Shown: positions 3,633 through 51,400 of the stretch, in pieces | Layout: the number at the start of each line of letters is the position of its first letter | How positions within the stretch are numbered: position 1 is the stretch's first letter | Assembly: GCA_023205875.1 (NCBI GenBank) | Contig: CP060759.1 | Span: 682,001-746,000, forward strand | Length of the DNA stretch: 64,000 nt | Direction: 5' to 3' | DNA from: Chloropicon primus | Taxonomy: Eukaryota | The notes under the pieces: model-generated | Databases searched by the model: none | What the model was told of the DNA's origin: nothing | What the model saw: the letters and a program-made list of their open reading frames with translations, nothing else | Translations under genes and position numbers: made by a program

Positions 3633-5513
3633 CTAGTAATTCACGTCCATGTTCCTGCGGTGGGGCGGCACGTAGGCCAGGCCCAGGGCTTTGAAGACGT
3701 CCTCCTCCGTCTCGCAGTGGATGCAGTCCGCCCAGCTCGCGGCCTCCCACAGGACGTCTCTCTTCAACTGGCCCCCCTCGCTCTCCTCTCGGCGGACGGG
3801 CACCAGGGCCGTGTCCGTGAGCTTCACGGAGTTTGGCCTCTCTTGAGTGCTTTCCCTGTAAATCTCCTTCTGCTGATCGTCTCGCGATCTCTTCTTCGAG
3901 AGCCACGACCGCACGACGGGCTCGGTGGGGGCCTTCATGCGCTCATCAAGTGCTTTTTGAATCCCTTCCCGGTTTCCGATGGGCCAAAACCTCATGGCTC
4001 GGTTGAATTCCGCGGACCCGGTGTTGTGAAGCAACGCAAAGGCGCGAGAGATCTTGTGGTACAGCTTGAAGTCTGCCCGGCAAACCTGCCCACTCCCTGG
4101 CAACCGAATGATGCCCATGACCATGCAAGATGCGAGGACTGCGCCGTCTTTCCCGTGCTTGAATTTGTTCTCAGAACCCGTCTGAAGGAAGTCCAAGAGA
4201 AATCCAGAGTCTTGCAGCGCCTTGACAATCTTTTTCATCACTCGTCCAAGATCCTCGTTCCCGGAGATGACGAGGAAGTCCACGTCGTGCGTGCTCGGCT
4301 TTCCTCGCCTGTAGGAACCCGCCAGGATCACCTCGAGGTCCTCCGCAAGCGGTTCTGTTGCAGCCTTGAAGGCACGGTGCGCACTCTCCATCGACTCCCT
4401 TGAGACGGGCTTCTGGAGCGACTCATAATATTTCAGGCCGAGTCCAATCATCTGACCCGGCTCCCCATTCTCCGAATAAAACTTGCGCACGTCGTCGATT
4501 GTCCTCAAGCCATTCTCGTACCAACGCAAGGACATTTTCTCCCCACAGCCCCATACAGCACGAAACGTCTTTATCACCACGTAATCTGGGTCACCTTCCG
4601 CGAGCACCACCCTCGGCAGTCGATAATCCGGCGAGGCTAAGATGTCTGCAATTTTCTGGGCGGTTTTGGGTCCCACGCCACGTTCCATCCGGCCGCCGTG
4701 GGCCTTGGATAGAATCTCGGAAGCATCTTTGATCTGTCTCTGTTCGCCATACGGAGGCGTTGATAAGATTGCAATGGCGGTCCTTGTCGCTTTCGCACCG
4801 AAGCCGCTAACTTTGTTCCCGTGACAATCTCGACGCTGGTCTATCTGATACACCTCAAGGAGCCTCTTCAGTTCACTCACCACATACTGATTCGTAGGTA
4901 TTTCACCATCTCCATCTTTCGCAGCACCGTTCTCCTGGAGAACGCTGACCGCCTCCAGTTTCTCAAAGTCCTTGAAGTGCAGCCAATTGAATCGAAGCCT
5001 TCGCAAGGTGTCTTGGACAGCAAGCTCCTCCTCGTCCTCCTCATAAGGCAAGGACAAGTCAAGCGTGTTGTCCAGAGCCGCCTGCGACCAAGCGGAGTAC
5101 TGGGAGTTGCTCAGGCTCCGTGGAAGGCTGGAGGAAGCCGCTTCCTCCCCCTCCTGCTGGGGGACCTCGACGACGAACCAGTCAGGGTCCACGAGCTTGT
5201 TCTCCTTTATACAAGCCGTCAGCCACTGAGACTTCACGAATTTGACATGACCCTTGAGAGCCCTGACGTCGATGTCCTTCCTCTTGGACAGTTCCTCGAA
5301 CACTTCCTCGCCCGCTCCCGCACCACACACCGCATACTGTGAGGCTTCCGAGAGCTTGTAATCAGCCTGCAGACTCGCTCCTCGCATCTTCAAGAGATCC
5401 TTCAGCCGCTTGGTGTGCCAAGTGTAAAGGAAGCAGAAGGTAATCCCCTTGAAGATTTTCTTCTCTTCCTTCTGTTCCTTCATCGCGACATACTTCACGA
5501 CACGTTTGCCCAA
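3633..5513 (-). CDS. DNA polymerase X family (Pol lambda-like) with N-terminal BRCT domain
   Basis: BRCT-like start (FKGITFCF...KSQWLTACIKENKLV), HhH motifs (GVGPKTA, VWGCG), catalytic GSYRRGKPSTHDVDFLV, RADF, TGS, and C-terminal ETEEDVFKALGLAYVPPHRR. First in-frame ATG is at 5483; the true start is uncertain. Confidence 0.92.
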   Translation of the reverse strand: MGKRVVKYVAMKEQKEEKKIFKGITFCFLYTWHTKRLKDLLKMRGASLQADYKLSEASQYAVCGAGAGEEVFEELSKRKDIDVRALKGHVKFVKSQWLTACIKENKLVDPDWFVVEVPQQEGEEAASSSLPRSLSNSQYSAWSQAALDNTLDLSLPYEEDEEELAVQDTLRRLRFNWLHFKDFEKLEAVSVLQENGAAKDGDGEIPTNQYVVSELKRLLEVYQIDQRRDCHGNKVSGFGAKATRTAIAILSTPPYGEQRQIKDASEILSKAHGGRMERGVGPKTAQKIADILASPDYRLPRVVLAEGDPDYVVIKTFRAVWGCGEKMSLRWYENGLRTIDDVRKFYSENGEPGQMIGLGLKYYESLQKPVSRESMESAHRAFKAATEPLAEDLEVILAGSYRRGKPSTHDVDFLVISGNEDLGRVMKKIVKALQDSGFLLDFLQTGSENKFKHGKDGAVLASCMVMGIIRLPGSGQVCRADFKLYHKISRAFALLHNTGSAEFNRAMRFWPIGNREGIQKALDERMKAPTEPVVRSWLSKKRSRDDQQKEIYRESTQERPNSVKLTDTALVPVRREESEGGQLKRDVLWEAASWADCIHCETEEDVFKALGLAYVPPHRRNMDVNY

Positions 5514-6146: not shown

Positions 6147-7202
6147 ATGGACTTGAGTCCGTCAACCAACAAAGTGACCAAGGACGTGCACAGGACGTTG
6201 CCGTCCTATGACATCGAGTCGTCCCCTTCTTCGGGGCGCCGAAGCCGGACGACCTCGGAGGCGAACGGCGTGGACGAACGCCTGCTCGGACCGGCCAAGG
6301 ACAAGAAGGGGAAGAATTTACAGATAGTATTCATAGTCGTGTTCCAGCTGGCCACATCAATATCGATGACGCTGATAAACAAGGCGGCCGTCAGGGCCCT
6401 GCCGTATCCCATCACCTTGCTCCTGTTCCAGACGCTCGGGACTGTGCTGATCCTCGAGGGCGGCAAGGCCCTGCGCTTGCTCCACTACGACGGTTTCAAG
6501 TGGGAGAAGGGAGGGAAAAAGTTCTTGGGAGTCTCCATTGCGTTTGTGATCCCGATGGTGTTCAACATGATGGCGCTGGAGCACGTCTCGGTGGCGACTG
6601 TGGTCGTCTTCCGGCAGGTCTCGACGGCCTTGGTGGCCGTCGGGGAGTTTGTCCTGTTCAAGAAGAAGTTCAAGATGCTCGTGATTCTCTCCATCCTGCT
6701 TGGGATTCTGGGGAGCCTCGAGTACGGCTTCTCGGCGACGGACTTCAAGTTCCTGGGGTACCTCTACTCGTTCCTTTACGCGGTGTCCATGGCCATAAAC
6801 GCCCTGTACGTCAAGGGCATCTTCGACCAGCTGCCCCAGATGAGCAGCTGGGAGAAGACGTATTACCAGAACCTGGAGGGCTCGCCCTTCCTGCTGCTGA
6901 TGGCCCTGCCGATCGAGAGCATCTCGTCCTGCGTGTCGGACATGGCGAAGCTGAGCTACCAGAGCTGGGTGGTGATCCTGATGTCCTGCTTCGCCGGGTT
7001 CGCGGTGAGCGTGGCTGGGATCTTGGCCAGGACCGCCCTGTCCCCCACCTCGTTCAACATCCTGGGGAACATGAGCAAGCCCATGACCGTCCTGCTGAGC
7101 TTCTTCCTGTTCGGGGTCGAGTCCTCCATGAAGGCCCTTGCGGGTCTGGGGATGGTCCTCGTGGCCGGGGTCCTCTACTCGTACGCCTCCAGGAAAAAGT
7201 AA
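6147..7202 (+). CDS. Nucleotide-sugar transporter (TPT/SLC35; GDP-sugar transporter-like)
   Basis: About 10 hydrophobic segments; SMTLINK, SPTSFNILGNMSKP motif; C-terminal basic end RKK. Confidence 0.85.
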   Translation: MDLSPSTNKVTKDVHRTLPSYDIESSPSSGRRSRTTSEANGVDERLLGPAKDKKGKNLQIVFIVVFQLATSISMTLINKAAVRALPYPITLLLFQTLGTVLILEGGKALRLLHYDGFKWEKGGKKFLGVSIAFVIPMVFNMMALEHVSVATVVVFRQVSTALVAVGEFVLFKKKFKMLVILSILLGILGSLEYGFSATDFKFLGYLYSFLYAVSMAINALYVKGIFDQLPQMSSWEKTYYQNLEGSPFLLLMALPIESISSCVSDMAKLSYQSWVVILMSCFAGFAVSVAGILARTALSPTSFNILGNMSKPMTVLLSFFLFGVESSMKALAGLGMVLVAGVLYSYASRKK

Positions 7203-7295
7203 GGGGCAAGGACAAGGACAAGGAAAGGGTCGCCTTCCTTCCTTCTTGCGAGCGATTGATGATGCTCTACAGCGTAAGCGTAAGCGTGTGATATA

Positions 7296-7300
7296 TTACA
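7296..7300 (-). promoter_or_regulatory. Putative TGTAA polyadenylation signal for the Fanzor transcript
   Basis: TTACA on + (TGTAA on -). The same pentamer follows several host stops in this window (e.g. ~42438, ~58078, ~62659). UGUAA is the known chlorophyte poly(A) signal. Confidence 0.4.
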
Positions 7301-7479
7301 TGAAAGAGCAATGATTTGGAGGCGGGAGGATCCAAGAGCCGGTTCCTATCCGTCCTGGCTGTCAAGCAATAAGCAGGTAAGAAAATCACAGTCAATACTG
7401 GAAGCACAAAGGCAAGTTCTCCTTTCCACTGAAAGAGAGAAACACGGAGAGAAACACGGGAGAACCGGCCACAACTTAC

Positions 7480-7632
7480 CTGTTAGTTTTCTGCAAAGGT
7501 CGTTTCACCGAGTTTGTAAGTTTCTCGGCAGGGTAATTCAGCCCTACCACGACCATTCCACCGTACATGAACGAATACTTCCGCCCACGCACGGCAGCCC
7601 GTACTAACAAACGTATGTGCAACCCTGAGGAG
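7480..7632 (-). ncRNA. Putative Fanzor omegaRNA scaffold (may extend to ~7330 and/or begin within the ORF end)
   Basis: Lies directly 3' of the Fanzor stop. Nested stems on the minus-strand RNA: UGUUAGU(7609-7603)/ACUAACA(7487-7481), GGUCGU(7554-7549)/ACGACC(7503-7498), UAGGG/CCCUG, CCGAG/CUCGG, GUACGG/CCGUGC. The U-G pairs work only on the minus strand. Confidence 0.6.
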
Positions 7633-9753
7633 TTACACACTTTTTGGTTGACGCAAGTGCTTCAGGAGGACGTTGCGTGCCCCGTTCACATCCCGACCGC
7701 ACTTGAAGCCACACTTCTGGCACTTGTACACCTCTGCTCCACCCAGGTTGTCCTTGATGTGTCCGCACCTGCCACAGGTCTTGGAGGTGTACTCCTCCGT
7801 CACGATCGCCAGCTCACTGCCGTGCAAGAGCACCTTGGAAGCCAAGAACGTTCTGAACGCATAGTGCCTCAACGTCAAGAGCGTGCGAGCCGTCTTCTTC
7901 CTGATCACTCGGCGTCTCCCGTTGTTGTTCTTCTTCACCATGTCTTGGGACTTGAACTCCGGGAGGAGGATTGTGTCGAACCTCCTGCATAGATCGTTGG
8001 CTACCTTTTTGTGAAGCTCGTTCGTCAGACCTCGAAGTTTCTCCATGCAGGCGTATTGCTGTCTCTTCAAGTCGCGGCGGTCGAGGTAAGGGAGCTTCAC
8101 CTTTGGGTCTTTGCGCTCGGAAATGATCTCATCAATCCTCCAGCAGAGGTTGAACAGCCTCGCGAAGCCTCGCTCGCCCTTGGCATACTCCCCGACGCCT
8201 TCTTGCGGCGAGTACGACGTCTGAAAGGTCCTGACTCCCGGATCCAGGGCGACAACCTTCCGCTTGTTCTCAGGCTTCAGGGGTGGCAGGCGATCCCATG
8301 GCGTCGCGATGGGAATGTGCATGTGGAACTGCCCAAGGCGATTTCTTGTGATCTTCACGGCACCCTCGATCTTGCCCCCGGGGATCTCCTCCGTCAAGTA
8401 CAGGGGCCCGCCGGCCATCTTCTTCTTGAACACCTCCAGCTTGGTCCACTTGCGTCGTTTGTTGTGCTTGGTGTCATCCTTGTGCCTCGTGTTTGGCCTT
8501 TCGATCGTCTCCACGTTCTTTAACTCTCTTGCATCAATTTCAATGGTCCAAGAGCTCGGTTGCTGACGTTGACGATACTTGAGAACGAAGCGGTGCCCCT
8601 TCTCCTCGCCGCGCTCCTTCATCGCTTCCTGCTTCGCGATGTTCGAATCCCATGCCTTGATGAGACTTCGCACGGCAGCTTGTCTGATGGCACAGGGGTA
8701 TCCTTCAGCCAAGGATGCTTCTGATTTACAAAGGCCCCGCTAACGTAGTCCCGGTCCTTGCCCACTTGGATGCGAAAAGCTCTGCCTCCAATTTGGCTCT
8801 CGAGTCTCTTCTCTCTGGCCGCGAAAAGCTCTGCCTCCTGTTTTGTCCATGGCCGTGGAGAGCATTGGATTTCTTTCAGCTCTTTCTCCAGGCCCTCAAA
8901 GACCTCAGGGCCTCGAGGTTTGGCCGTCACAAATCTGTCCAGCAGGACGGTCCAAACCAGCGGAAAACGCTCCTTCTTGACCGCCTCCAAACACTTGTTG
9001 TATGTGAAACGCGCAGCTCCCATCCAGTTGCAAAGGCACTTCGCCTGCTCAGGGTTCAAGCGCATCCTAAGCTTCCTCGTCCGTATCACCGTTCGCTCCG
9101 ACAATAGCTTGGAGGTCTTCAGTTTCTGCCCCCTCTTCCTTTTGGCGGGCGACTGCAATGTCTCGACGGATACCACAGAATCTTCTGGAAGGTTCAAGCA
9201 CGACCTCCATCCCGTCTTCGGACACTTTACCTCTACAAGTTCTCTCTTGATCGATGAGAACCAGGTCTTCTTCACGCTGTCGTCCGCCAAGCCACCCGGC
9301 TGCTTCCCTGCTTTCTTCCCCTCTTGTTGCCCTTCTTCTTGCCCTTCTTCTTGTTCTTCTTCTTGCCCTTCTTGCGAGGCTTCTTGCGAGGCTTGCCTGA
9401 CGAGCTCAGAGGCGTCCGCCTCCGGCCGCTTCCCCTTCCGCTTCCCCCCGCTTCTTGCGAGGCGTGCTCGAACCCTCCTCGAAAGCAGAGGCGGGGTCGT
9501 CACGGCGAGGCGTGCTCGAACCCTCACCCGCAGAGGCGGGGTCGTCCGCGGGAGGAAGCAGACACAACGCGTAGAGCAACTGCAAGCCCTGATTCCAGAA
9601 CGGAAGTAACGGCCGCTCCGTCGTCGGAGACTCCTGCCCCGACTTCGAAGCGCCCTGAGCATGACTCTCGCCAGAGTGCGACCTCCTTGTGGAACTCGTC
9701 GAGCCACTCCCCTGCTTCTCCTTTTTCTTACGGCGCTTCCCTGATCGCGCCAT
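7633..9753 (-). pseudogene. Fanzor2 / IS607-type TnpB RNA-guided endonuclease, frameshifted as assembled (pseudogene or assembly indels); ~706 aa when corrected
   Basis: Three ORF pieces join up. 9753-~9444 carries LPFWNQ...LCLLP. ~9443-8699 carries KTWFS, the HTH RTRKLRMRLNPEQAKCLCNWMGAARFTYNK, and HPWLKDTP. ~8694-7633 carries CAIRQAAV, RuvC-I ALDPGVRTF, LLPEF, VTEEYTSKTCGRCG and CQKCGFKCGRDVNGARN. Confidence 0.9.
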
Positions 9754-9962
9754 GACTGTTAGCTGCTACTGCAAGGGTTTCACTCGCTCCCCTCCTCGTA
9801 ACTCCTCGTAACTATAGATTTTCCGCTTCTCGTTTTCCAAATTGATTTTTTGGTTTTGGATGAGGACAGAAGCGGGTGACGTCAAACGGTAGAAGAGAAC
9901 GAAATGTGTGGCAGCCAGTCGATCGGAGCGACCCCGGTCGGTTTGCTTGGAGAACAGAGCGG

Positions 9963-10206
9963 GTAAGTGGCGACGGAGGGCGCCGTACGAGGGCTCGGGA
10001 GGGGAGGGGGTGGGACGGGGGGGAGCACGATGGACGGACTCGCGCCTCGCGCCTCGTCGTCGCGCCTCGTCGTCGTCGTTGTCGTCGTCGTCGTCGGATT
10101 TCGTGTGCCAATGATGACTGACCCACGTTTTTTGATGTCCTCCTCGTGCGTTTGTTTTTGTTTTTGTTTTTGTTTTGCGGGTGAAGGTGTGGGTGTCTCT
10201 TTGCAG
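9963..10206 (+). other. Putative 5'-UTR intron of SHMT
   Basis: GG|GTAAGT at 9963, CTGAC branch-like motif ~10118, T-rich tract, TTGCAG| ending at 10206. Confidence 0.6.
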
Positions 10207-10275: not shown

Positions 10276-11832
10276 ATGTCGGTATCTTTTGCTTTGAGAA
10301 GCGGGGCGAGCCGCTTGGCGTCCGTCTTGAACAACAAGGTTGGAAACCTGGCGAGCACGCTGCCCAAGGCGGTGGCGGCCGCGCGGCTGTCGAGCGCGGT
10401 GCCCGAGCTCAACGAGGAGGCCACCCCCTGGCTGAAGCACATGAACGCCTCGCTGGAGCAGATCGACCCTGAGCTTTACGACATCATCGAGCACGAGAAG
10501 GACAGGCAGAGGAAGGGCTTGGAGCTGATTCCTTCGGAGAACTTCACCTCCAAGGCGGTGATGGAGGCCCTCGGGAGCGTCATGTCCAACAAGTACTCGG
10601 AGGGCTACCCGGGCGCGAGGTACTACGGCGGGAACGAGTTCATCGACATGGCCGAGCGCCTGTGCCAGCAGAGGGCCCTCGAGGCCTTCAACCTGGACCC
10701 CAAGGAGTGGGGCGTGAACGTCCAGGCCCTGTCCGGGTCCCCCTCGAACCTCCACGTGTACTGCGCGCTGCTCAACCCCCACGACCGCATCATGGCCTTG
10801 GACCTCCCCCACGGGGGGCACCTGAGCCACGGGTACCAGACCGACAAGAAGAAGATCAGCGCCGTGAGCATCTACTTCGAGACCATGCCCTACAGGCTGG
10901 ACGAGTCGACCGGCCTTATCGACTACGACACCTTGGAGAAGAACGCGGCCCTCTTCAGGCCGAAGCTCATTGTCGCCGGAGCCAGCGCCTACGCCAGGCT
11001 CTACGACTACGGAAGGATGAGGGAGATCGCCGACAAGTCCAACGCTTGGCTCCTCGCGGACATGGCTCACATCAGCGGCCTCGTCGCCGCTGGAGTCGTG
11101 GAGTCTCCGTTTGACTACGCCGACGTCGTGACCACCACCACCCACAAGTCCCTCAGGGGGCCAAGGGGAGCCATGATCTTCTACAGGAAGGGCGTCAGGA
11201 AGCACGACAAGAAGGGAAACCCGATCATGTACGACATTGCCGACAAGATCGACTTCTCCGTCTTCCCTGGTCACCAGGGTGGCCCGCACAACCACACCAT
11301 CTCCGCCCTTTCCACCGCCTTGAAGCTCGCCGCGACCCCTGAGTTCAAGACCTACCAGGTGCAGGTCATGAAGAACTGCCAGGCTTTCGCCGAGCGCTTC
11401 AAGGAGTTGGGATACTCCCTCGTCTCGGGAGGCACCGACAACCACTTGCTCCTCATCAACTTGAAGCCGCAGGGTGTGGACGGCTCCAGAGTTGAGCGCG
11501 TCATGGAGTTGGCTCACATCGCCGCCAACAAGAACACTGTCCCAGGAGATACCAGTGCCCTTGTCCCGGGAGGAATTAGGATGGGAACGCCAGCGCTCAC
11601 CACCAGGGGATTCTTGGAGCAGGACTTCGTCGAGGTCGCCAACTTTGTGGACAGGGCTGTCAAGATCACCGCGAACATCAAGGGTCAGGTCGGACCAAAG
11701 CTCAAGGACTTCAGGGCCGCTTTGGAGGAGAAGGAGTGGCCAGAGATCACTGCATTGAAGGCTGATGTTGAGAAGTTTGCGGGAGCTTTCCCAACCATTG
11801 GGTTTGATGTCGACAACATGAGATACAAGTAA
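10276..11832 (+). CDS. SHMT: Serine hydroxymethyltransferase, mitochondrial-type
   Basis: [47 protein letters not shown] (PLP lysine), QGGPHNH; N-terminal transit-like peptide. Confidence 0.98.
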
Positions 11833-21459: not shown

Positions 21460-24400
21460 ATGTTCGTGGAGGACGTGACGATCGACGGGTTCAAGTCATA
21501 CGCTCAGCGTGTGACGGTTCCAGGGTTCGACAGGCACTTCAACGCCATCACGGGGCTGAACGGAACGGGAAAGAGTAATATCCTGGACTCCATATGCTTC
21601 GTGCTTGGGATCACGAACTTGTCGCAGGTGAGGGCGAGCACCCTGCAGGACCTCGTGTACAAGCAGGGACAGGCTGGCGTGACGAAGGCGACGGTGTCGA
21701 TCACGTTCAACAACGAGGACAAGGCGAACAGCCCGGTTGGGTATGAGCACTGCGACAAGCTCACCGTCACCAGGCAGGTGGTTATCGGAGGGAGAAACAA
21801 GTACATGATCAACGGCAGTACTGCTCAGCCCAACAGGGTTCAGAACCTGTTCCACTCCGTGCAGCTGAACGTGAACAACCCACACTTTCTTATCATGCAG
21901 GGAAGGATCACCAAAGTGCTCAACATGAAGGCACCGGAGATCCTCTCTATGCTGGAGGAGGCGGCGGGGACGAGGATGTACGAGAACAAGAAGGAAGCTG
22001 CTCTGCGCACGCTGACGAAGAAGCAGATCAAGATGGACGAGATCGACAAGGTCCTCCAGGAGGAGATCCTCCCCGCGCTCCAGAAGCTCAGGAAGGAGAG
22101 GGGTCAGTACATGCAGTGGGCCTCCTCTGGGTCCCAGCTCGAGCAGCTCCGCAGGTTTTGCATTGCGTATGAGTACAGCGTCAGTCTTGAGCAGATGCAA
22201 GAGACCTCGACGAGCAAGGAGGAGGTGGCGTCCTTGCAAGAGTCCCTGGACGCGCAGAAGGAGAACCTCCACGAGAGGACCAAGGAGCTGAAGGCCGAGC
22301 TTCAGCAGATGCTTAAGGAGCGCGACAACTTCGTGTCCAGGGAAGTCAAGACCTTGCAAGCCAAGCAAGATGACGTCTCCAAGGAGCTGGTTCGCCAGAC
22401 CAGCGCTTGGACAAACAAGAAGGAGACCTTGGCCGCGGAACTTGAGCAGAAAAGCTCTCTGGAGAAAGCCCTCGAGGGTTGCGACTCCGAGACGCTGCAG
22501 GCGAAGTTTGACAAAGTCAAGAGCGCTGCTGACAAGGCGAAGAACGTGTTCGCTGAGGTCCAAGGGGCGACCCAAGCCGCCCAGTGCGAGCTTGAAAGTT
22601 ACAAGTCAGGCGATAGCCGCGACAGTTCCAACAAGAGTCTGAAGGAGAGGCTCGCCGAGGCCAAGACTGACCTCACAGCCAAGAAGGGTGAGGTGAAAGC
22701 GAGTGACCTGCAGATCAAGCATCTGAAGAAGGAGCTCACTGAAGCCAAGAAGGTTGCCAAGAAGAAGGATTCTGAGAACAGCAAACTGAAGAAGGAGCTG
22801 GAGAAAGCCGAAAGTGCTGTCAAGTCCGCAGAGACGAAGATCGGCTCGCTTGACTTTGACGAAAAGAAGAGGACAAAGCTGGCTGATGCTCTTCAGAAGG
22901 AGGAAGGGGAGGCCCAGAAGTGGCACGAGAGAGTTCAGAAGCTCCAAGCCCAACTTTCTGCTCTGGACTTCCAGTTCAAGAATCCTGAGAGCGGCTTTGA
23001 CAGGAGCCGTGTGAAGGGCGTTGTCGCCAAACTTCTGCGCGTCAAGGACGTTTCAAGCAACTCGGCATTGGAAGTCATTGCAGGAGGGAAGCTGTACCAA
23101 GTTGTCGTTGATACAGCAGACTGTGCAAAGGCTCTTCTTGAGAAGGGTCAGCTGAGGAACAGAGTGACGATCATTCCTCTTGACAAGATTTCTTCAAGGA
23201 CCTTGTCTCAGGATAAGATCAAGGCTGCTAAGCAGCAAGTGGGTGACAAGGCAAAGCCTGCTATCTCACTTGTTGGTTATGAGAGCGAGCTCGCCAATGC
23301 GATGAAGTATGTCTTTGGAAATGCTTTCGTCTGCAAAGACGCGGAGACCGCAAAGACTGTGACGTACAGCAAAATGATTGGGGCTCACTGCGCAACACTC
23401 GATGGTGACTTTTATGACCCAGCTGGTACCCTTTCCGGAGGGTCATCCAAGTCTTCTCCTTCAATCCTGTCGAGACTCCATTCTCTGACTGAAGCAGAGA
23501 AGAAGTTCCAAACGCACCAAAGCAATGTGGTCCAGCTGAGAGGACAAGTGAAGGCCCTCGACTCTGCATCAAAGCAGTACACAAAATGCAAGCAGGAGTT
23601 GGATTTGAAGGTGCACTCTCTGAGCCTCTTGAAGAAGAAGATTGACGCCAGCGAATGCACTCAGTTGATGAACCAGGTTGCTACTCTGGAGGAATCTCTT
23701 GAGCAGGCTCAAGCTACGCATGAGACTGCGTTGGAGAAGCAGACCAGTCTCGAGAAGTCTGTGAAGCAACTTGAGAAAGAGGTTTCTTTGTTTGGCAAGG
23801 AGCAGAAGCAGTTGATCAAAATGACAGAGGACAAGGTCAAGAAGTGTGTCTCTAATGAGAAGAAGGAGAAGGAGGCGATGGAGAAGGCCAACCAAGCTCT
23901 TCAGGAGGTGACAGTTGAGATTGAATCATCTGCTGCAGATCAGAAGAGACTCGCCGAGCAGATTGAGCAGGCAGATGCCACCATTGCTGAGCTGAATGCT
24001 GAGGTTGAAAGCGCTGAAGATGAGGTTGCCCTTAAGAAAGCAGCCTACGAGGAATTGCAGATGTCCTTGGACGAAAAGCAAAAGGAGCTCTCAAAGTGCG
24101 ACAAGCAATCTGCTCAGATCACGACGGAGATGGATGACATCCAGGCAGAGATCAGCAACATCGGGATGGAGAAGAAGAAATTGGAGCACAAGCTCTCAAA
24201 GCTGGAGAAGCACTGCCAAGAGGCAAGCGATACTGTTGCGAGCCTGCTTAAGAAGCACCCTTGGATCAAGAGCGAGAAGCAATACTTTGGCATGCCTGGC
24301 ACGGACTATGACTGGGAGAGCCAAGATCCAGAAGAGACGCTTGAGCAGCTGGCCAAGGCCGAGGCAGCGCATAACGCGATGGCAAAGAAGATCAACAAGA

Positions 24401-25044
24401 AAGTGATGAACATGTTTGACAAGGCAGAATCAGAATACAACCAGTTGACTGAGAAGAAGAGGATCGTCATGAACGACAAGGAGTCCATTGAGAAGGTCAT
24501 TGCAGAGCTGGACGAGAAGAAGAGGGAAACCCTCGAGAAGACCTGGATTAAAGTCAACAAGGACTTTGGATCTATCTTCAGCACTCTGCTGCCTGGAACC
24601 ACGGCAAGGCTGGTGCCTCCAGAGGGCGAGACGTTCATGGATGGACTTGAAGTGAGAGTTGCGTTTGGCGATGTTTGGAAAGAGAGTCTGTCGGAATTGA
24701 GTGGAGGCCAAAGGAGTCTGTTGGCCTTGTCCTTGATTCTCGCTCTCTTGCTTTTCAAGCCAGCACCTATCTACATCTTGGATGAGGTTGATGCAGCCCT
24801 TGATCTCAGCCACACACAAAACATTGGCAGGATGATCAAGGCTCACTTCCCGCACTCGCAATTCATTGTTGTCTCCTTGAAGGAAGGAATGTTCAACAAT
24901 GCGAACGTCTTGTTTAGGACCAAGTTTGTAGATGGAATCAGCTGTGTCAGTCGAACAGGTTCCAAGCCAGACCAAAGACAAGTGAAAAAGAAGAAAGCTG
25001 TGCCCGCGCTCGGGAACAAAGAAAACCAACCAGTAAATGTTTGA
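21460..25044 (+). CDS. SMC2: Condensin subunit SMC2
   Basis: IDGFKSYA, Walker A GLNGTGKSN, VQLNVNNPHFLIMQGRITKVLNMK, hinge, LSGGQRS and Walker B ILDEVDAALD. Confidence 0.98.
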   Translation: MFVEDVTIDGFKSYAQRVTVPGFDRHFNAITGLNGTGKSNILDSICFVLGITNLSQVRASTLQDLVYKQGQAGVTKATVSITFNNEDKANSPVGYEHCDKLTVTRQVVIGGRNKYMINGSTAQPNRVQNLFHSVQLNVNNPHFLIMQGRITKVLNMKAPEILSMLEEAAGTRMYENKKEAALRTLTKKQIKMDEIDKVLQEEILPALQKLRKERGQYMQWASSGSQLEQLRRFCIAYEYSVSLEQMQETSTSKEEVASLQESLDAQKENLHERTKELKAELQQMLKERDNFVSREVKTLQAKQDDVSKELVRQTSAWTNKKETLAAELEQKSSLEKALEGCDSETLQAKFDKVKSAADKAKNVFAEVQGATQAAQCELESYKSGDSRDSSNKSLKERLAEAKTDLTAKKGEVKASDLQIKHLKKELTEAKKVAKKKDSENSKLKKELEKAESAVKSAETKIGSLDFDEKKRTKLADALQKEEGEAQKWHERVQKLQAQLSALDFQFKNPESGFDRSRVKGVVAKLLRVKDVSSNSALEVIAGGKLYQVVVDTADCAKALLEKGQLRNRVTIIPLDKISSRTLSQDKIKAAKQQVGDKAKPAISLVGYESELANAMKYVFGNAFVCKDAETAKTVTYSKMIGAHCATLDGDFYDPAGTLSGGSSKSSPSILSRLHSLTEAEKKFQTHQSNVVQLRGQVKALDSASKQYTKCKQELDLKVHSLSLLKKKIDASECTQLMNQVATLEESLEQAQATHETALEKQTSLEKSVKQLEKEVSLFGKEQKQLIKMTEDKVKKCVSNEKKEKEAMEKANQALQEVTVEIESSAADQKRLAEQIEQADATIAELNAEVESAEDEVALKKAAYEELQMSLDEKQKELSKCDKQSAQITTEMDDIQAEISNIGMEKKKLEHKLSKLEKHCQEASDTVASLLKKHPWIKSEKQYFGMPGTDYDWESQDPEETLEQLAKAEAAHNAMAKKINKKVMNMFDKAESEYNQLTEKKRIVMNDKESIEKVIAELDEKKRETLEKTWIKVNKDFGSIFSTLLPGTTARLVPPEGETFMDGLEVRVAFGDVWKESLSELSGGQRSLLALSLILALLLFKPAPIYILDEVDAALDLSHTQNIGRMIKAHFPHSQFIVVSLKEGMFNNANVLFRTKFVDGISCVSRTGSKPDQRQVKKKKAVPALGNKENQPVNV

Positions 25045-33539: not shown

Positions 33540-33911
33540 TCTTCCTCGAGGCTCTTTCTTTTGGGTTTTCTCTCTCTCTCTGCGCTGAGAGAAAAGAAAA
33601 GAAAGGAAAAGAGAGAAAAAAAAACTCTTCGCCGCTCGCGAGACCTAGCTTCGGTCGGACGATGCTTTTCTGACTCTCTGAGAACCGCCTCACAAGCACG
33701 CGCGCCGAGACGTTACGCGGTCTTCTTCAAAAACCGTTACCCTCGTGACCTGACCTGGCTCTTCTTATCTTTTTTTGAGTATCGGATTATGTGGAATTGC
33801 TACGGCCCTCCCCGATTTTTTTATTTTTTTGCAAAGTAGAAAATCCATTGCATTAGTTCGAGCAGCTCCGACGAGACGAGACGAGCATGTGCGCGACCAT
33901 GAGAGGACTTT

Positions 33912-34790
33912 GAAGGAGGAGTCTCTCCCCTTTCCCTCCCTTGTTCCCTTGGTTGGCACTGCAAGCAATGCGCCTTGAGGCACTGTGTTGATAGGTGTTG
34001 CACCCTGGCCTACCCCCCTCTCTCCCTCTCTCCCTTTCCCTCTCCCTCTCCCTTTCCTCCAACTTGGAAGGAGGAGTCTCTCCCCTTTCCCTCCCTTGTT
34101 CCCTTGGTTGGCACTGCAAGCAATGCGCCTTGAGGCACTGTGTTGATAGGTGTTGCACCCTGGCCTACCCCCTCTCCTCTCTCCCTTTCCCTCTCCCTTT
34201 CCTCCAACTTGTTCTCCCTTTCCCTCCCTTGTTCCCTTGGTTGGCACTGCAAGCAATGCGCCTTGAGGCACTGTGTTGATAGGTGTTGCACCCTGGCCTA
34301 CCCCCCTCTCTCCCTCTCTCCCTTTCCCTCTCCCTCTCCCTTTCCTCCAACTTGGAAGGAGGAGTCTCTCCCTTCCTCCCTTGTTCCCTTGGTTGGCACT
34401 GCAAGCAATGCGCCTTGAGGCACTGTGTTGATGGGTGTTGCACCCTGGCCTACTCCCTCTCTCCCTTTCCTCTCCCTCTCCCTTTCCTCCAACTTGGAAG
34501 GAGGAGTCTCTCCCCTTTCCCTCCCTTGTTCCCTTGGTTGGCACTGCAAGCAATGCGCCTTGAGGCACTGTGTTGATGGGTGTTGCACCCTGGCCTACCC
34601 CCCCTCTCTCCCTCTCTCCCTTTCCCTCTCCCTCTCCCTTTCCTCCAACTTGGAAGGAGGAGTCTCTCCCCTTTCCCTCCCTTGTTCCCTTGGTTGGCAC
34701 TGCAAGCAATGCGCCTTGAGGCACTGTGTTGATGGGTGTTGCACCCTGGCCTACTCCCCCCCTCTCTCCCTCTCCTCCCCCCCTCTCTCT
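33912..34790. repeat. Tandem array of 6 units (133-156-bp period): conserved ~73-bp core plus variable CT-rich linker
   Basis: Core TTGTTCCCTTGGTTGGCACTGCAAGCAATGCGCCTTGAGGCACTGTGTTGAT(A/G)GGTGTTGCACCCTGGCCTAC starts at 33941, 34096, 34229, 34381, 34526 and 34682. Confidence 0.97.
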
Positions 34791-42432: not shown

Positions 42433-45400
42433 TCAAATGTAATACGATCGAGGAACGAGCTCAAGGTTGGCGTCGTTCCTTTCGATACGCAGCTCTTCCG
42501 ACACTGCCTTGGTGGCCTCGCTCCCTCTCTGAATATTGATGAACGACATCGCTTTCGTGAAGATGTCCTTGGTGGCGCACTGAATCACCTTGGTGTTGGG
42601 AAACTCCCACACGCCGCAACACGCGGTGGGGAAGCGCGTTATGTGCCTCATTTTGATCTTGAACTTGTCCTCCCTCCCGAGAACCTGCTTGACGGACGTG
42701 CCAAGGAGTGTCCAGCAGATAAAGTACTTTGTAGTCTCCTTGAGCTCCTTCGAGCCTACCAAGATGATCTTGTGCCCCTTGGTAAAAAGCATGGTGTACC
42801 TCCTCTTGGAGGACGCGGACGCCTGGTCCAGCTCGAGGTAGTGGATCAGCGCGTCCTTGTCGAACAACGGCGTCAGTTTCGATAGGGTCTCCGTCCACTT
42901 GTCCAGGGATTTCTTCTCCTCAGAATTCGATGTGATGCTCTCGAGCTGAGTCGCCTGCATCACTTCCGGGGCCCGCACTCTGTGCGGAATGTTGCCCTCG
43001 ATTCCCTCCTTTCCCAGGCACAGGAGCCCCAACCCCTGGCTCAGCCGGGAGGCTCCCTCGAGAAAACCTGCGGTCGGCCTCACGGCGACCCCAAGCAACC
43101 CTTTCATCACACCCAAGGGAAGCAAAACAAGCCCTCCCCTCTGATAGGCCCACACGGGATCGGTCAAAACGCCTGAGATGCCGCGAACCGTTCCCGTAAA
43201 TAGCTCTCGGAGGCCCACGTAAATTGACCTCGGGGCGTTGATGGCCTTTCCCGAATAACGCTTCAGAGTCTGAGAGTCGGCCCAATCTCCATGATCTTCG
43301 TCGGTGGGCACCACTGCAAGGAGAAGAATCGCTGTCTTAGAAAGGGCGCCAATCGCTTGGGAGGCAGCGGAGAAGATGACATAACCCAGCTGCTGGGTGG
43401 CCATGAGCGGGCCTACCCTGCCCGCGGAGATTTCCTGGCCTATCGTGAACGCGGAACTGCAAGCGTAAACCACACTCAGTGGGGCAGCTATGATGGCTGG
43501 CCCAGTGCCCCCAAGAATTTTGTGGGCTTCACCGATAATTTGCCACTGCAGATGCTGCCTGATTCTCTGGTTGAGTGCATTCTTTCCGATGACTTCATCT
43601 GAGAAGCTAAGGCCGCTGATCTGCAGTGGAGCGTCATCGACGTCCAGGAGCTGAAGTCCAGAAGTGTTCAACGAGCGGCTCAATAGCGACTTCTTTCCGC
43701 CATCGGGTCCCGCCAGAACTTGACTGGCGATGGACAGCGACAAGGTGACGCGAAGAGATCCTATTTCTGCATTTTCGATAAAATACCAGGAAGAACTGCT
43801 TGACAAGGCCCTCATCGCGGTCAAGTCGGCAGCCGCCTTGTTTCTGTACCAGTCAGTGGGGTGGGCGAAGCCTTCCATGATGGAGTTGTCCTCCACCCGA
43901 GTGCCTGACAAGTCCTCGATCTCGGGCGGTCCAAATGGAAGAGTGAAATTCAACATGCAATCCTGGCGGGTATTCCAATCCTCGTCCTGATAGAGGTCGC
44001 GAATGGGGAAAGCTTGGGAGAACTTGAGCACGGAGTCCATGAAGAGATCGTCCACCTCGAGCTTCAAATCCCCGAAATCGAGCTGGAAATCCTTGATGGA
44101 CCTGATATTAGCTTCTCCGCCCTTGCTCGTGAAGATCTCGGAGAAGCTTACGCGCAAGAAATCAGCTTGATTGCCCATTGAGCTCAAGCATCTGAGGATC
44201 ACGGGTTGAGTGCTGTGCGGCAACTGGTTGTCGATTTGGATCTTTTGGATGGACCCCACGATCGTCGTCTCCTTGTCGTCCTGAACTTTACTCACTTTGA
44301 TCTTTTCGAGCGTGGTGTTTATCAGCTCGCCCCCCAGGACGCCACTTATCATCGCCAGGCCTATGCTGGAAAGCGTTACGTTGATGGAAGTGACATTCCT
44401 TATGGCACTGTGAGGGGGGTTCCACTGCATCCTCACATTTATCTCTGGACTTGGGCCGCTCTCGTGGCCGTGACCAACTCTCTTTGGCATCGTGAGCCTG
44501 ATCCACGCGTACACGGGATTGAACGGCGTCGCGACGCTTGTGCTGATTTCAGAACAATAGACGGTCCTCCAAGCCAGAAGATCAGACCTGCCCAGAGGGT
44601 TCTTGTCGTACAACTCAAAAGTCACAGAGGCCGAGAGAGGCACTTCCTCGAAGACGAACTTTTTGGATTTGTCGAAGAGAGGTTCAAGACTCTGGTGGAC
44701 GACATCGGTGCTGAGATCTCCTTCAGTTTTCGACTTTGAGCATTTCACGAGAACGAACGGGTTGCAAAGTGGTCCCTCGATGCTGAAGTCGAGAGTCGCC
44801 AGCGGCTGGAACGAGGTCCTCTTCTGAAGGTTTCTCGCGGCCATCACTGTAACTTGCAGTTCTCCCGTCTGATATCCGAGTTGGTGCAACAAAGTCTCTC
44901 TCTTCTTCACGTTTGAGACACGCTCTTCCCACTGCTCGACGGACAGGGGCTTCAGTTGGGCCAAAATCTCCATTCTTTGGGCTAAAATGTCCTCCAACGT
45001 CTGGACCTTGAGCTGCATGAGACTGTTTGCGTTGGTCCTCCAGGATAGCGAGATCACTACCTCGCCACTTACTTTGTCCGTTCCATGCTGTCTGCCAAGT
45101 GTGTAATGAATCGAATCATTGCTCTCCATGGTAAAGCTTTCCAGCAAAGAAATTCTTACGCTGCCCAAAAACAGTTTTGCTGCCCCGCTCTTGCGAACGG
45201 GAGCGCACCTCTGGGCCTTAACTCTGTAGATATTCAAGTCCAGAAAGTTGGTGGCGCGTGCACTTGGAAAAGTGAAGGCTTCATCCCAGGTAGGCGAGCA
45301 AGTCTGCAGGCAGATGTTCGTCTGGTAACTTTGTCCATTGAGGTCCACTTCTGCGTACGTGTGCGTTGACTGCGGGTTGCCAGCAAGGTTGTTCGCCGAG

Positions 45401-48400
45401 TGTATGGTCACAGTCAGCTCTCCTCCCAAGGAGAGTATCGCAGCAGAGCTGTCACCATCCAGGCTGTCATTCATTTCGTTGAGAAGGATTTCTTGGGCAA
45501 TCCTCCTGCGGCTGTTGCTGCTCATGGACCCCTTTGTCTTCGCTTGATGCTTCGCCTCGAGCTTGCGCCGTCCCGGCGTCTTTTGGGCTTTCCAGGTTTC
45601 AATCACACTCGTGCTCAACTTCAAATAGGAATCAAGATGCTTTTGGTTCCTGCCGTACAAGTCTATCTTCAAGGGTCTGCTTTTCATGTAGCCCATGAGA
45701 CTCGCAAACTTCCTGTTCACGTTATTCGCGAGTTCGTCCTCGAGCTTTCTCAATCTCGCATGCATTTCTAACATCGAGAGTTCAGATTGAATCGATGCCG
45801 AGTCTTTCTTGTCCGAGAACTTGAGTACCCTTGTTGGCCCGTCCGCATACACGGTCACAAACACTTTGGAGGCCAACTCTTTCGCAAGAACGGACTTCAG
45901 TTTCTTTTCCAGCTGCGTCGCAGCGTTCTTCTCCCTCTGTTTCTTGCTGAAGCTTGGCGTTGGAATGAATGCCCTGGATGTGCTCCTGCCGTGCTTAGAC
46001 TCCGAGACTGCTATCGGCTTTCGATCTCCTAATTCATCGATGCTGTACTCGGTAGTTCTACCAGTTGCCATGTCGTTCTCTCGCATGAGTTCTACAGAGA
46101 GCTTGTGAGGCCACATCGGAACGTCCCAGGCGTAATTGATCGATGTCCCGGGCATCACCGTTGTCTGAGGATTGCTTTCTTGGAGAGACAGCCTTTCCTC
46201 GTCATCTGCCTTCCCTTCCAACGACTTCTTGTCCTCAACCTGCTTGAACACGATCAAGATCTCCTTGCAGTCATTCTGTATCCTGTACGGAGGCTCCGCG
46301 GAAGGATCCTTGAAAGACACCAGGATGTGCGACGGGCTCACTGTTATCGAGACAGGAATAATAAGGAAAACACCATCCTGGTCTTGATGTGATAGCCGCA
46401 GACCAAAGTAAGTGTCCCCTGTTGCCAACAGCGGAAACGATGAACTCCAATTCCAAATGTTGCCACTCGGTCTGATGGTGATCTCGAGGGGATTGTAAAT
46501 CGAAGACCACTTGTGGCCAACCGACTGCCCAGCCTCGACTCTGCAATGATGCCCTGACTCAGTCATGCCACTCTGCTTGTAGATGATGCTGAAGTTCGAC
46601 ATGTTCTCCACGATTATAGCAGTCTTCACGCAGATGACCTTTGTCTTGTTGTATATCGAATCGGCCGGGCAAGGAAGGATGTCGATTCCAAAGTGCAATA
46701 ATTCATCAGAATTCCCTTCCCCGTACTGGTTGTGGCCCCCCAGAGACGCTGCTGCGATGGGTATTGGGTTGTGTCCCGACGGACCTGGCCTCTTTATGTG
46801 AACGGACGGGCCATATGGTGAGGGCTTCTCCCCCGCCATTCTGAAATAGATCCGCTGATTATCGGTGTTCCAGAGAACAGGGAGAGGCAAAGTCGGGGCC
46901 CGTTCCGCATTGCCAGGGACGAAAATCTCGTCCCTCCTCCTCGCTTTCCCGAAAAGAGGAAGTGAGTTGTTCTCGCTGAAGAATAAGTCGCTGTTGGTTT
47001 GGTTGTCGATCCAATACGGGCAATATATCGTGACCTTCCTTCCGATTCTTCCCGTGGGTTCGTTCTCAATTCCAATTTTGACCTTCTGTTTGTTCAAAAC
47101 CCGAAGGTCAGAGGGACCGCTTGGCCCCGGAGTTCCAGTAACAGGCGTCTCTCCGAGGTCCAATCCAAGCGTCTCTCCGAGGTCCACCGAGTACAGATTC
47201 GCAGAAGTGAGCTCAATCTCTGTTAATTCACTCGCGTTCGGCCCGATCGTAGATTGCATGAACGGATAGAGCGTGGCATGCTTCGGCAGATACCCTTGTC
47301 TGGTTTTGTCATTGACAAGGTAACCGTCGTGAATTGCGATAGGAGCTTGAGTCTTCAGCATTCCCTGCGCGGCAGTCTTCACCCTAATAGACAATTTCTG
47401 CTTCTGTTGCAAGTCACAATAAATGTCTGCTTTGCTCCCTGGTTTCAGAATAATGCCTGCGGGCGACATGTTGCCTCGAAGCCTCCTCCTCGAAGCACTG
47501 TTCGTGATGCTGTATGTTCTGGATCCAGCACTGCCAATAGATGACGTTCTATCGAGAGTGGATAGAGTGTCAACCACGTCCGATCGCCTGGTACCAAGGA
47601 ATCTACCTTGGGCGTCCATAAGATCGATTTCTATGTCGTAGGGCAAGGCATTAGCAATCACAAGAGGAGGCTGGAAGGAAAGCTCGCACTCAACTGGCAA
47701 GGGCGCTGAAGACAAGCCCTGCGAATCAATGTTGTAGCTGGGCAAATGAACTTGCTGAGGCGGAACCTTCATAATCTGGAGATTGCAGAAAAAGCTGGCA
47801 GGGCTCCCAGCATTGTTTTCTGACAAGACGCTTGTCGGAGAATGTGTACCCCTCGAAGGGGGGCGTTCCTCGATCTCCTCGGAGCCAAGCTGGATGTCCT
47901 CCATACTGACTTCAACAGGAGATGTTTCGTTTGTCTCCGGTATGCTCATATCAGACATTGGAACTTCCTCCAACTTGCTCTGGCTGCTTCCAGGTGTACT
48001 GCTGGTTTGCCCGGGTGCTTTCAATTGCGGTGTAGGGGTGTATTCCGGAGGCCCTGCCTCGGCCTTGCATTCGATCATTTGCTGCTGGACATCCATCTTG
48101 TCCACCTCGGTGATGTGGATACTGTGAGCCGTGGCTTCCAGAAGCCCATCCGCTGAATTCACAAAAAGCACCGACTTTGACATGATCGACGAAGTTATTG
48201 GAAGGTACACTCCCTTTCCAGGTTCGATGGGTCCGATCATGACGTCGCTACGAACGTCCGTTGTATCTGCCTCCATCTCCCCGGCTTCTTGAGTACCCGG
48301 CGCATTTAAATAGCCCAGGCTCTGCTGAAGTCTGAACGCGAGCTCTCTATCCGACCGGTTGAAGATCCAGTAGGGCGAATGGACGGAGATAACTTTCGTT

Positions 48401-51400
48401 CGCCCCACCAAAATGATGTCAACGATAACTGGCACTTCAATGTTGTGGAGAGGAGCTTCGAGGGTGTACTTGTACTTTCCGACAAGAGAGACATTCACCT
48501 GAAGCAGGGGGCTCCAATTTCCTTCGAATTGTAAGTTCAAGCATTCAACCTGAATGGCACTGGTTCTGGAAAACCTTTTGCCCTTGGAGTGCTGCTTCTC
48601 TGCGAGATAGGGCTTCTCTTTCACGATGACTCGCTTTCCATCCATGACTCTGTGGGCGGTCTGTGCAGTCGACCAGTACCACAAGTTTGCTCCCGAGTAA
48701 TTGTTGAGACAATACTTTTGTGGGGCCGCTCCACTGTCAAGCTCGCCCTCTTCGACATCGTCCTGCCCAAAAGTGCTCTTCCTCATATTTTGGGTGTATT
48801 CCTTTGAAGTCTCAGCGTTGAGCATTCTGCTAAACGTCATGGCATCCCCCAGGGCCAGCAGGATATGCGGACTGACGTGGATGTCCAATCTCTCTTCAGA
48901 GTTCAACCACAGCGAGTTGCTTTTCCCGCTATAAGCATCCTCTTGCTGATGAAATTCAAATTGAACGGGCCAATCCAAGATAATGCTGGCGTACCGGCTT
49001 ACTGAGCTGTCAAGATATTCGGCACTGAGGGTCACCTTGAGATCAGCGCTGGTTTTCGCACCCACGTCCTCCTCCTGAAGCACGACCTTGTACTGCAGCT
49101 GGAGAGTCTTTGCCCAAAGTCTCAAGACATCTGGGTTGCCGTACGTCCTGGGGCGATCGTCGCAAATCACCACGGAAACGCTATTTATTTTCAGATCCAC
49201 CTCCATTGTTGACGGTCTGAAGACAACCTCTTGCAAAGGCTCCGGGACTCCTTCGCTTGCACTCTCGTCCACATCGTGTTTCTGCTGGGTGCCTGACACC
49301 GTCTTCAGAATTCTGTTCCACAAATGCACTTCAGAGAAGCAAGCCTTGAGCACCAGATTGTCCAGCGATACGCGAATTTTCGTTAAAGCAGTTTCCCTCT
49401 CGTTGGGAGTAATCCCATGCTCCAACGTGAATGCTTTGCGTTTCGTGAGCTGAGTGAACGACTTCGCTCTCCCTAAATCCCCTGGTGGCGGACTGGAGCC
49501 ACCAAGAGATGACTCGCTGTGATTCTCTCTCCACCACCTCTGGAGCTTTCTCGCGACGAGTACTTTTTTGATCCTTGCAACCTGTTCCTCGAATACTGGC
49601 GCGCTCGTGTTCATTTCGACATCCAGGTTGAAGGGCAGCAGGAAGGAGTCGTTTGGTTGTGAGCTCTTGAGCTTAAAGGCCACCTCAAGATCAAATACTC
49701 GGACTCGCATCGCCGTTTCCCCGTCGGAACCAAAACCGTACCGAAATTGCAACGTATTTGTTTTTACTAGCACGCCGTTGGATTGCTCCTGTACGGCGTC
49801 TGCCACAAGTGGCAAAGGAACGAATATTCTTGTGTCCGTAGCAATTAGATTGAAGTAGAACCATTTCGCAAACGACGGACTAACCAGCTTCACCGGCGCG
49901 TGCGAATCATTTGTCTCATTCGTCTTCAGCACGGACAGGATGTTCGAAATGAAAGCCATGTCCTTCTCGTACGGCCAAGAGATGAGGGTATTGCATAATC
50001 GGAGCTCAACTGTCATGGGCCCTTCTTTTTGCATCAGTAATACGAATTTGAACGAAGGAGTGCACGTCTCCTCGGTAGGCTCGTTGGATGGTTTCACCTG
50101 CAGACTTCCATTCATGATCTCTTTGATGTTGTGCCGCGTGTGCATATCTGTCAGACTGAAGTTTGAGCCGCTGATACACATGTGAGTGTTCCCGGATGAC
50201 ATGCCCCTGTACACAAAGGAGGGGGAATCGAGCTTGAAGACGCCATATTGAGTCGGCGAATCCGTGTCTTCGAAGCATATTTCCCACTTCGAACTCCGGA
50301 TGCAGACCTCAAAGGATGGACTCTCTTCCTTTGGGAGCTTGAGAAATTCCTGGTACCTGTAAGCGCTGTCCATGAAGTCCTCTTTGCTCCTCACAACGAT
50401 TTCTTCTTCTTCAACGATCGCAAAGACTGATCGATCTCCCATGTTGCCAGAAAGGAACTCCATGAGATGACCGTAATTCAACTGACTCAACTTCACGCAG
50501 AGCACGTTCCAAAACAGAACCACTCTGGTCTGCGTTCCCTCGATTGATTCAATGTAACAGAGCAAGGACGTTTCCGGAATGAAGTTCTGGAACCCCAAGT
50601 ACGTGTGCTGGAATCCGAGAGCCAAGTTGTTCAAGCAGATCTCAAGATGGGGTCGGCCCTTCAGACCCTCTGCAGGACACTGAATCTCATTGCTGCTCTG
50701 GACCTTCAAATTGGCGACCAATTTGAAAAACTTGTCAGGGTTGTCACTGTGTATGGGGAGTATGACTTCAATGTTCTCCACGGAGAGGTGTAGACTGCTT
50801 GCACCTTTGGAATCCGCGTCCTCGCCATTGTCAGAGAGACTCTTCTCCTCGTCGTTAGTCTCCCCGTCGGTTTCCTCTTTGGATGGCAATGCACCAGTTA
50901 TTCGCGATACGAAGAACAGGATGTCTTGAATAAAGCGCATGATGAGCTGCGCTTGAACCTTCGATATTCGAATGACCGTCACCCCCGTGTCTCCCTTGAC
51001 ATCGTGTGTCAAGCACAGTCCATAACCCTCCTCGGTGCCGAGAGGATGGATACCAAGGCATTCCTTCGTGTCGGATTTTCCAATCAAGTCTAGCACATGC
51101 ATGCTTTCGATGTTCAGCTTTGTGTTATTTTCGTCCTCGCTGAGGCTGTCCACCGACTTGTACACACTCGCCGTAGTATTCAAGCACTCAAGGCAAGCAA
51201 TGTCTTGCAGGGAGTGAGACAGGGTCACACTGATGCTCGTGACATTGATTTCCATCAGAGTCATGCTCTTGTCTACCTCACTACTCTCTTCTGGTAAAGG
51301 TGTCGTGAGGTCATCTTTTGGTGTGTCGGTGTCTCGCTTCGTGATGGAAAAGGACTCCTGAAGTTCAAAGACATACTTGATGATTGGCTCGCACAGGCTC

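Follow-up and report, generated by a model that had tools for sequence, protein, structure and literature searches.

A frameshifted copy of the Chloropicon primus Fanzor2* element and a splice donor within its predicted guide RNA

The stretch of DNA analysed here, from the marine green alga Chloropicon primus (64,000 nucleotides, hereafter the window, numbered from its first letter) carries on its minus strand what is probably a frameshifted, defective copy of the multi-copy C. primus Fanzor2* element, whose intact siblings would be CRISPR-like, RNA-guided nucleases aiding the persistence of the element. The part most worth following is a splice donor situated inside the predicted omegaRNA. 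The element lies among host frames, arranged as follows.

3636-5483, minus strand: BRCT family X polymerase, long intronless host frame
6147..7202, plus strand: nucleotide-sugar-transporter-like gene, convergent with the element (Pfam UAA, E 4e-10)
7376..9814, minus strand: non-autonomous Fanzor2 element, with bounds that are approximate (right end at 7374-7376, left end at 9814-9821; from the X1 depth step, loose contig ends and a joining contig)
10276..11832, plus strand: serine hydroxymethyltransferase; its 5'-UTR contains an intron at 9963-10186 (domain match, contigs)
21460-25041, plus strand: SMC protein, long intronless host frame
42436-54207, minus strand: VPS13-like protein of 3924 aa, long intronless host frame
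58106-61738, minus strand: tubulin cofactor D, long intronless host frame

The 5'-UTR intron of the serine hydroxymethyltransferase gene has a GTAAGT donor, and its splicing uses the acceptor at 10186 rather than the CAG at 10206. Further along, about six 150-nt units, pyrimidine-rich at their cores, are arrayed in tandem at 33858-34758.

The minus-strand region 9753-7633 matches the Chloropicon primus 'putative IS605 transposase' family at 98% identity, its C-terminal half being 98-100% identical to proteins labelled 'putative IS605 transposase [Chloropicon primus]', and 693 of 708 aligned positions are the same in the sibling P0030 (723 aa). The main protein cluster comprises 46 members, of which 40 were examined and all 40 are named; among the cluster members listed, all 15 are from C. 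primus, 14 bear the IS605-transposase name and most are 722-723 aa long. Near-identity to the Fanzor2* family is thus found together with a dispersed multi-copy state: 25 dispersed IS605-like members are described in the C. primus genome (PMC6731263), and, in the accessible parts of the relevant reports, the C. primus Fanzor2 proteins are assigned to non-autonomous cut-and-paste elements of a class named Fanzor2* (PMC10711439; preprint 10.1101/2023.08.09.552727), an account also cited in PMC12633428. The tables of PMC10711439 include C. primus proteins, for example UPR03652.1 (P0052). Judged by its sequence, the window element is one of roughly 25 copies of this published family, and because the family is named in PMC10711439 and PMC6731263 the element counts as already known, which removes the novelty implied by the initial annotation. 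Peptide scans for close relatives gave no match in metagenome contigs or viral contigs.

Between the element ends the Fanzor gene is the only one, as expected of a non-autonomous C. primus Fanzor2* element, one of the two readings that the annotation had proposed. Its description as transposase-less likewise held, since a TnpA profile able to detect 80 of the 95 relative loci (an IS607-TnpA-like frame is present at 10 of the 15 viral and 70 of the 80 prokaryotic ones) matched none of the 867 frames of the 64-kb window. The IS607 pro-Fanzor TnpB proteins and IS607-borne Fanzor2 have in common with the C. primus protein the DPG motif, the shifted Glu and the same tree branch against canonical TnpB; these IS607 relatives mostly adjoin a serine-recombinase TnpA, whereas the C. 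primus element has none. A fungal database protein, P0109, unites an IS607 resolvase domain and a Fanzor2 in one frame. With the published C. primus Fanzor2* element the window copy shares DPG, the shifted Glu, multi-copy state, lack of a transposase and 98% identity; it differs in being frameshifted and in showing neither a 5-nt target-site duplication (TSD) nor a clear terminal inverted repeat (TIR) at its inferred ends, the published elements possessing degenerate TIRs and a variable 5-nt TSD that is clear in the preprint alignment (10.1101/2023.08.09.552727). The authors of that work did not, in the parts accessible, find an autonomous partner (PMC10711439; preprint 10.1101/2023.08.09.552727).

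All the Fanzor2-type motifs listed in the initial annotation were located on the minus strand of the gene by motif search:

9083-9054, minus strand: RTRKLRMRLN
9026-8997, minus strand: WMGAARFTYN
8250-8236, minus strand: ALDPG (RuvC-I DPG)
7968-7954, minus strand: LLPEF (Pro at the canonical Glu site)
7803-7774, minus strand: VTEEYTSKTC (shifted Glu)
7776-7765, minus strand: CGRC (zinc finger)
7722-7711, minus strand: CQKC (zinc finger)
7695-7672, minus strand: RDVNGARN (RuvC-III Asp)

The Pfam domains Cas12f1-like_TNB (E 2e-18) and HTH_OrfB_IS605 (E 4e-7) fall on two different frames, and the C-terminal half reaches 89 bits against the NCBIfam model guided_TnpB, whose cut-off is 100. In an alignment of 47 relatives D521-P522-G523, P615 and E670 are invariant and D705 nearly so, with six residues between E670 and C677; the shifted Glu aligns with that of the mimivirus protein ApmFz2. 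DPG is present in 140 of 140 homologues examined and the shifted Glu in 139, and the three Fanzor lineage fingerprints of PMC10711439 (DPG, shifted Glu, and C-terminal zinc finger with RuvC-III Asp) are all found here. A tree built by a quick method from 81 hand-picked rows, including 12 outgroup TnpBs and leaving out Fanzor1 rows, groups the window protein with the C. primus proteins (support 100) inside a 20-row clade (99) whose other rows are metagenomic, and separates all DPG/shifted-Glu rows from the 12 canonical TnpBs (99). The published tree, as far as its source is accessible, also places the C. primus protein in Fanzor2 (PMC10711439).

The best match among solved structures, by sequence (E 2.6e-20) and by fold, is the mimivirus Fanzor2 ApmFz2 (PDB 9B0L); the structure matches listed include no Fanzor1. 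The predicted model of the intact sibling P0030 (pLDDT 78.9) superposes on 9B0L with Z 24.2 and rmsd 3.9 over 429 aligned residues (model 49-718 to 9B0L 53-514), and together with the motifs and the family identity this bears out a Fanzor2-type protein; the next-best fold match (Z 18.7) begins only at residue 238. As modelled, P0030 has a TnpB-like compact fold with a structured N-terminal extension (RuvC-R, thumb), as in Fanzor2. Since the alignment with 9B0L starts from residue 49, the PFWN/WFS extension would correspond to the N-terminal domain described in the accessible part of PMC11832414. The two proteins have in common this extension, the shifted Glu and a disordered basic N-terminus; the sibling is 723 aa long against 520 aa for ApmFz2, and by prediction the excess is mostly disorder, in Lys/Arg-rich residues 1-45 and 71-178 of the sibling. 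The C. primus protein also differs from ApmFz2 by a WED insertion (RPxTR..KDDxK..RRKW, sibling residues about 430-455), common to its closest metagenomic relatives (40-64% identity) and marking them; from their sequences these are apparently an unstudied Fanzor2 clade.

As assembled, the gene of the window copy lies in five pieces, separated by four frameshifts relative to P0030:

9450..9753, minus strand: gene piece 1, with ATG at 9753, basic disordered N-terminus, PFWN motif and a 33-nt deletion
near 9450-9444, minus strand: frameshift 1, 2 nt fewer than P0030
9322..9449, minus strand: gene pieces 2 and 3, Lys-rich, with an NLS-like tract; bounded by the frameshifts near 9450-9444, 9407 and 9321-9318
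9407, minus strand: frameshift 2, 14 nt fewer than P0030
9321-9318, minus strand: frameshift 3, 1 nt fewer than P0030
8699..9321, minus strand: gene piece 4, with WFSS (9269-9252), the start of HTH/WED (9083-8997) and REC; ends at the frameshift near 8698-8695
8698-8695, minus strand: frameshift 4, 1 nt fewer than P0030
7633..8697, minus strand: gene piece 5, with WED, RuvC-I, canonical-site Pro, shifted Glu, zinc finger (7776-7711), RuvC-III Asp and stop

The 33-nt deletion, relative to the siblings, is in frame. The frame initiated at the ATG stops after about 115 codons, and reading through with X at the breaks yields 708 positions, close to the annotated length of about 706 aa. The codons of the catalytic triad are present and all four frameshifts are upstream of them, one in the folded core, so that the copy can no longer be called catalytically intact and, with its frame broken, makes a poor candidate for a programmable editor. 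Introns were considered as the cause of the breaks and rejected, the RNA contigs of the family being unspliced through 8425-9297, 8555-9426 and 8555-9297. Both broken stretches are left out of the database model P0054, which may derive from the same DNA and is no independent support.

The condition of the gene can be set beside the evidence for the element's ends and movement, which come to about 7376 and 9814-9821 rather than to the annotated 7300 and 9875. The contig mapping leaves aside the metagenome and small-share runs X7-X21. Within the element, individual contigs of the DNA run X1 reach 24-35x the flank depth, and loose contig ends of other copies occur at 7376 (X1, X6) and at 9821 (X1); the loose end at 7376 may come from a divergent variant, and a right end at 7374 is for this reason also possible. 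One unbroken X1 contig of 1733 nt, at flank depth, joins 7330 to 9815 and represents an element-free allele, the empty site that the annotation had recommended looking for. This insertion polymorphism is a sign of recent movement. The element is mobile and not domesticated, because its depth is raised and its site is empty in X1. One further piece of the junction deserves its own line:

7331..7375, strand not assigned: 45 nt between flank and right end, unaligned to the element-free allele (contig comparison)

Where the window has these 45 nt the element-free allele has 139 other letters, and the site is therefore not a clean insertion. No TSD was found at the inferred ends 7374-7376 and 9814-9821, the true ends being uncertain and the site apparently rearranged; a single 5-mer pair (7331-7335, 9836-9840) is no more than chance would give and disagrees with the contigs. 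The best TIR in the scan matched at 9 of 14 positions, which is not above chance (197 of 300 random scans did at least as well), and a 20-nt right-end pattern was met at 3 loci, all of them chance matches of 20-23 nt. Seven nucleotides, 9815-9821, are common to the element-free allele and to the left junction of another copy; on these two cases of sequence they may represent either the element tip or a motif favoured for targeting (candidate TAM). Among the database gene models P0172, P0173, P0004 and P0037, family copies are joined to host coding sequence; P0172 combines a Fanzor with a SET domain that stands alone in P0173. This suggests further polymorphic insertions beside genes; the joined models may be errors of gene prediction. 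In X4 and X6, contigs seem to connect a point at about 9192 with a variant right end close to 7487, retaining the GTAAGT donor, and a loose end lies at 9200; the junction contigs are deeper (2331, 363) than the full-length form (1069, 77), and the joined form is likely an internally deleted derivative of about 0.7 kb, a ghost or MITE-like family.

How this copy came to its present state and place admits other readings. We think it fairly probable that the deletions are real decay of the copy. That the cell instead has an intact gene, the frameshifts having been introduced in assembling a poorly polishing repeat, seems unlikely to us: three of the four breaks are indeed 1-2 nt losses in G/C homopolymer runs, typical of such errors, the identity to siblings is 98%, and all four indels also show against mapped contigs (an extra letter in 4 of 4 mapped runs at 8694 and in 2 or 3 of 4 at the other breaks), but those contigs come from other copies and therefore say nothing on the breaks of this one, homopolymer shortening does not account for the 14-nt and 33-nt deletions, the unique DNA of the window is clean (13 frames of at least 450 aa, one of 3924 aa), and further database copies are split or truncated too (P0024+P0183, P0053, P0184). 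The irregular insertion site could also mean that the copy arrived by double-strand-break repair on the template of another copy, with 45 nt of flank carried over from the donor in place of 139 nt and no transposase involved. Replaced target DNA without a TSD, the absence of TnpA from the window and of any reported autonomous partner from the accessible preprint (10.1101/2023.08.09.552727) all agree with such an origin, yet the family has clear 5-nt TSDs in the alignment published there, and a later deletion next to a normal insertion, or strain polymorphism, fits the site equally well; we give this origin rather little weight. The annotation had also entertained a domesticated host nuclease, fixed among housekeeping genes, and the location between such genes and the transcription of the family would suit it; about 25 near-identical dispersed copies, the broken frame and above all the site empty in X1, which already contradicts fixation, render it highly improbable.

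Downstream of the gene lies the region that the annotation had described as structured and non-coding:

7374..7640, minus strand: predicted omegaRNA scaffold of about 260 nt, several hairpins; a guide would follow its right end (folding; boundaries inferred)
7374..7381, minus strand: right-end arm CUUACCUG, predicted 8-bp pairing with the splice donor (folding)
7429..7465, minus strand: polypyrimidine tract with CAG, a possible acceptor within the element that would yield a 51-nt intron (from sequence only)
7474..7482, minus strand: splice donor CAG/GTAAGT, exon end 7480; RNA contigs of three studies stop there
7587..7595, minus strand: second donor-like site GCC/GTGCGT; divergent-variant contigs of two studies (X4, X6) leave the element at 7593

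The structure itself was confirmed, the fold of 7632-7483 having a z of -4.37 with 0 of 200 shuffles as stable and that of 7482-7374 a z of -2.35; of the 70 control windows none reached -4 (minimum -3.09), and the opposite strand gave -0.51. From these folding predictions we infer that the region is an omegaRNA. Rfam held no matching family for it. In the accessible part of PMC11832414 the omegaRNA of ApmFz2 measures 247 nt, near the predicted length here; ApmFz2 RNA has a pseudoknot, for which the loop scan here offers a single tentative candidate, a 6-nt match that includes two G-U pairs (7539 loop to 7388-7383).

The donor is the sole 9-of-9 site among the element's 132 GT sites and the only CAGGTAAGT in the window, where 0.2 would be expected. 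Its predicted partner, the right-end arm CUUACCUG, we take to resemble the 5' end of U1 snRNA. The pairing between arm and donor has a probability of 0.51-0.99 when the RNA ends at 7374-7345, as an omegaRNA with a 20-nt guide would, and of 0.00-0.69, mostly below 0.4, for RNA ends at 7340-7300; the donor-masking stem is lost in folding with about 35 nt or more of the flank of this copy. That splicing sets the omegaRNA free as an intron became less likely, since 7479-7340 folds no better than shuffles (z 0.30) and its terminal stem is lost.

Transcripts of the family start near the left end and span about 9774 down to 7480, leaving the bin 7222-7332 uncovered. Contigs of X4 and X6 end at 7480, and one of X5 ends at 7479 and then runs on. 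X5 and X6 are taken as spliced RNA because their contig depths fit a contig skipping the host intron 9963-10186; X4 has no cover at that intron, and its RNA status is an automatic guess together with zero depth in an intergenic bin. We hold, with good though incomplete confidence from the contigs, that real splicing takes place at 7480 in family transcripts, the splicing of this particular copy being an extrapolation from sequence. The same contig stops, at 7480 and 7593, would arise if they marked truncated DNA copies or 3' end formation. The evidence consists of assembled RNA contigs rather than raw reads, no joint from 7480 is among the rows listed, so that a DNA break could explain the stop, and the sequence joined beyond it in X5 is absent from the window, as is an acceptor. 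UGUAA-type signals act as chlorophyte poly(A) signals, and one overlaps the stop codon. Against this, the principal stop falls precisely on the one perfect donor, the second is likewise at a GT, X5 continues with 46 foreign letters that are not poly(A), X5 and X6 skip a host intron that itself has a GTAAGT donor, and depth beyond relative to before the main donor falls to 0.12 (X6) and about 0.03 (X4), compared with 0.66-0.82 in DNA, contig depth being a rough measure. Causes other than splicing accordingly appear to us improbable.

Splicing at 7480 would have a direct consequence for the guide. As the donor is inside the scaffold and the right end is able to pair with it, splicing and guide-RNA formation would exclude each other. 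A regulated spliceosomal switch within the guide RNA of the C. primus Fanzor2* element is on this basis conceivable, though we would sooner doubt than assert it: RNA that is folded and bound by protein would remain unspliced and become omegaRNA, and spliced RNA would become mRNA joined to downstream host exons, with right end and guide lost. In IStrons the same RNA can act either as an intron or as omegaRNA, and splicing is repressed by the omegaRNA fold, a parallel that we draw as analogy only from the accessible part of preprint 10.1101/2023.11.20.567912. Neither splicing nor a test of activity is described in the accessible part of PMC10711439 for C. primus Fanzor2*, the literature consulted yielded no activity data on any C. 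primus Fanzor, and splicing of this kind is not described in those of PMC10312701, PMC10432273 and the IStron preprint; a literature search covering titles and the starts of abstracts, with most subscription papers outside its coverage, found splicing within a Fanzor omegaRNA undescribed. Within the literature so searched, the splice donor inside the predicted omegaRNA is a previously unreported detail.

By analogy, the intact siblings likely act as RNA-guided nucleases, and the cycle of the element may be pictured accordingly in conditional terms. A transcript running through the right end would give an omegaRNA of about 260 nt whose guide derives from the right flank; the protein of an intact sibling would bind it, in trans for this copy too, and could cut the element-free allele, whereupon repair from the occupied homologue would keep or copy the element, as for TnpB, whose homing is reported in the accessible part of 10.1101/2023.11.20.567912. 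Movement to new sites would likely require a transposase encoded elsewhere and acting in trans. Most mature transcripts would likely splice from the donor at 7480, in competition with omegaRNA folding, and the removal of right end and guide would limit the omegaRNA. A broken copy could still supply guide RNA. Fanzor 'ghost' loci, as described in the accessible part of PMC10432273, lack protein and keep ends and omegaRNA, and ghost omegaRNAs are functional for SpuFz1; both the broken copy and the internally deleted derivative could serve likewise, as far as their sequences go.

As a Fanzor discovery the window adds little, the family being in print and the intact siblings being better candidates for testing. 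How eukaryotic Fanzors derive guide RNA from their own transcripts is called open in the accessible part of 10.1101/2023.11.20.567912, and the donor at 7480 offers a precise site for that question; it is also relevant for expressing this predicted omegaRNA from a Pol II transcript. If true, the switch would parallel the IStron conflict in a eukaryotic, spliceosomal form, and it would be a natural means of controlling the dose of a genome-cutting enzyme present in about 25 copies.
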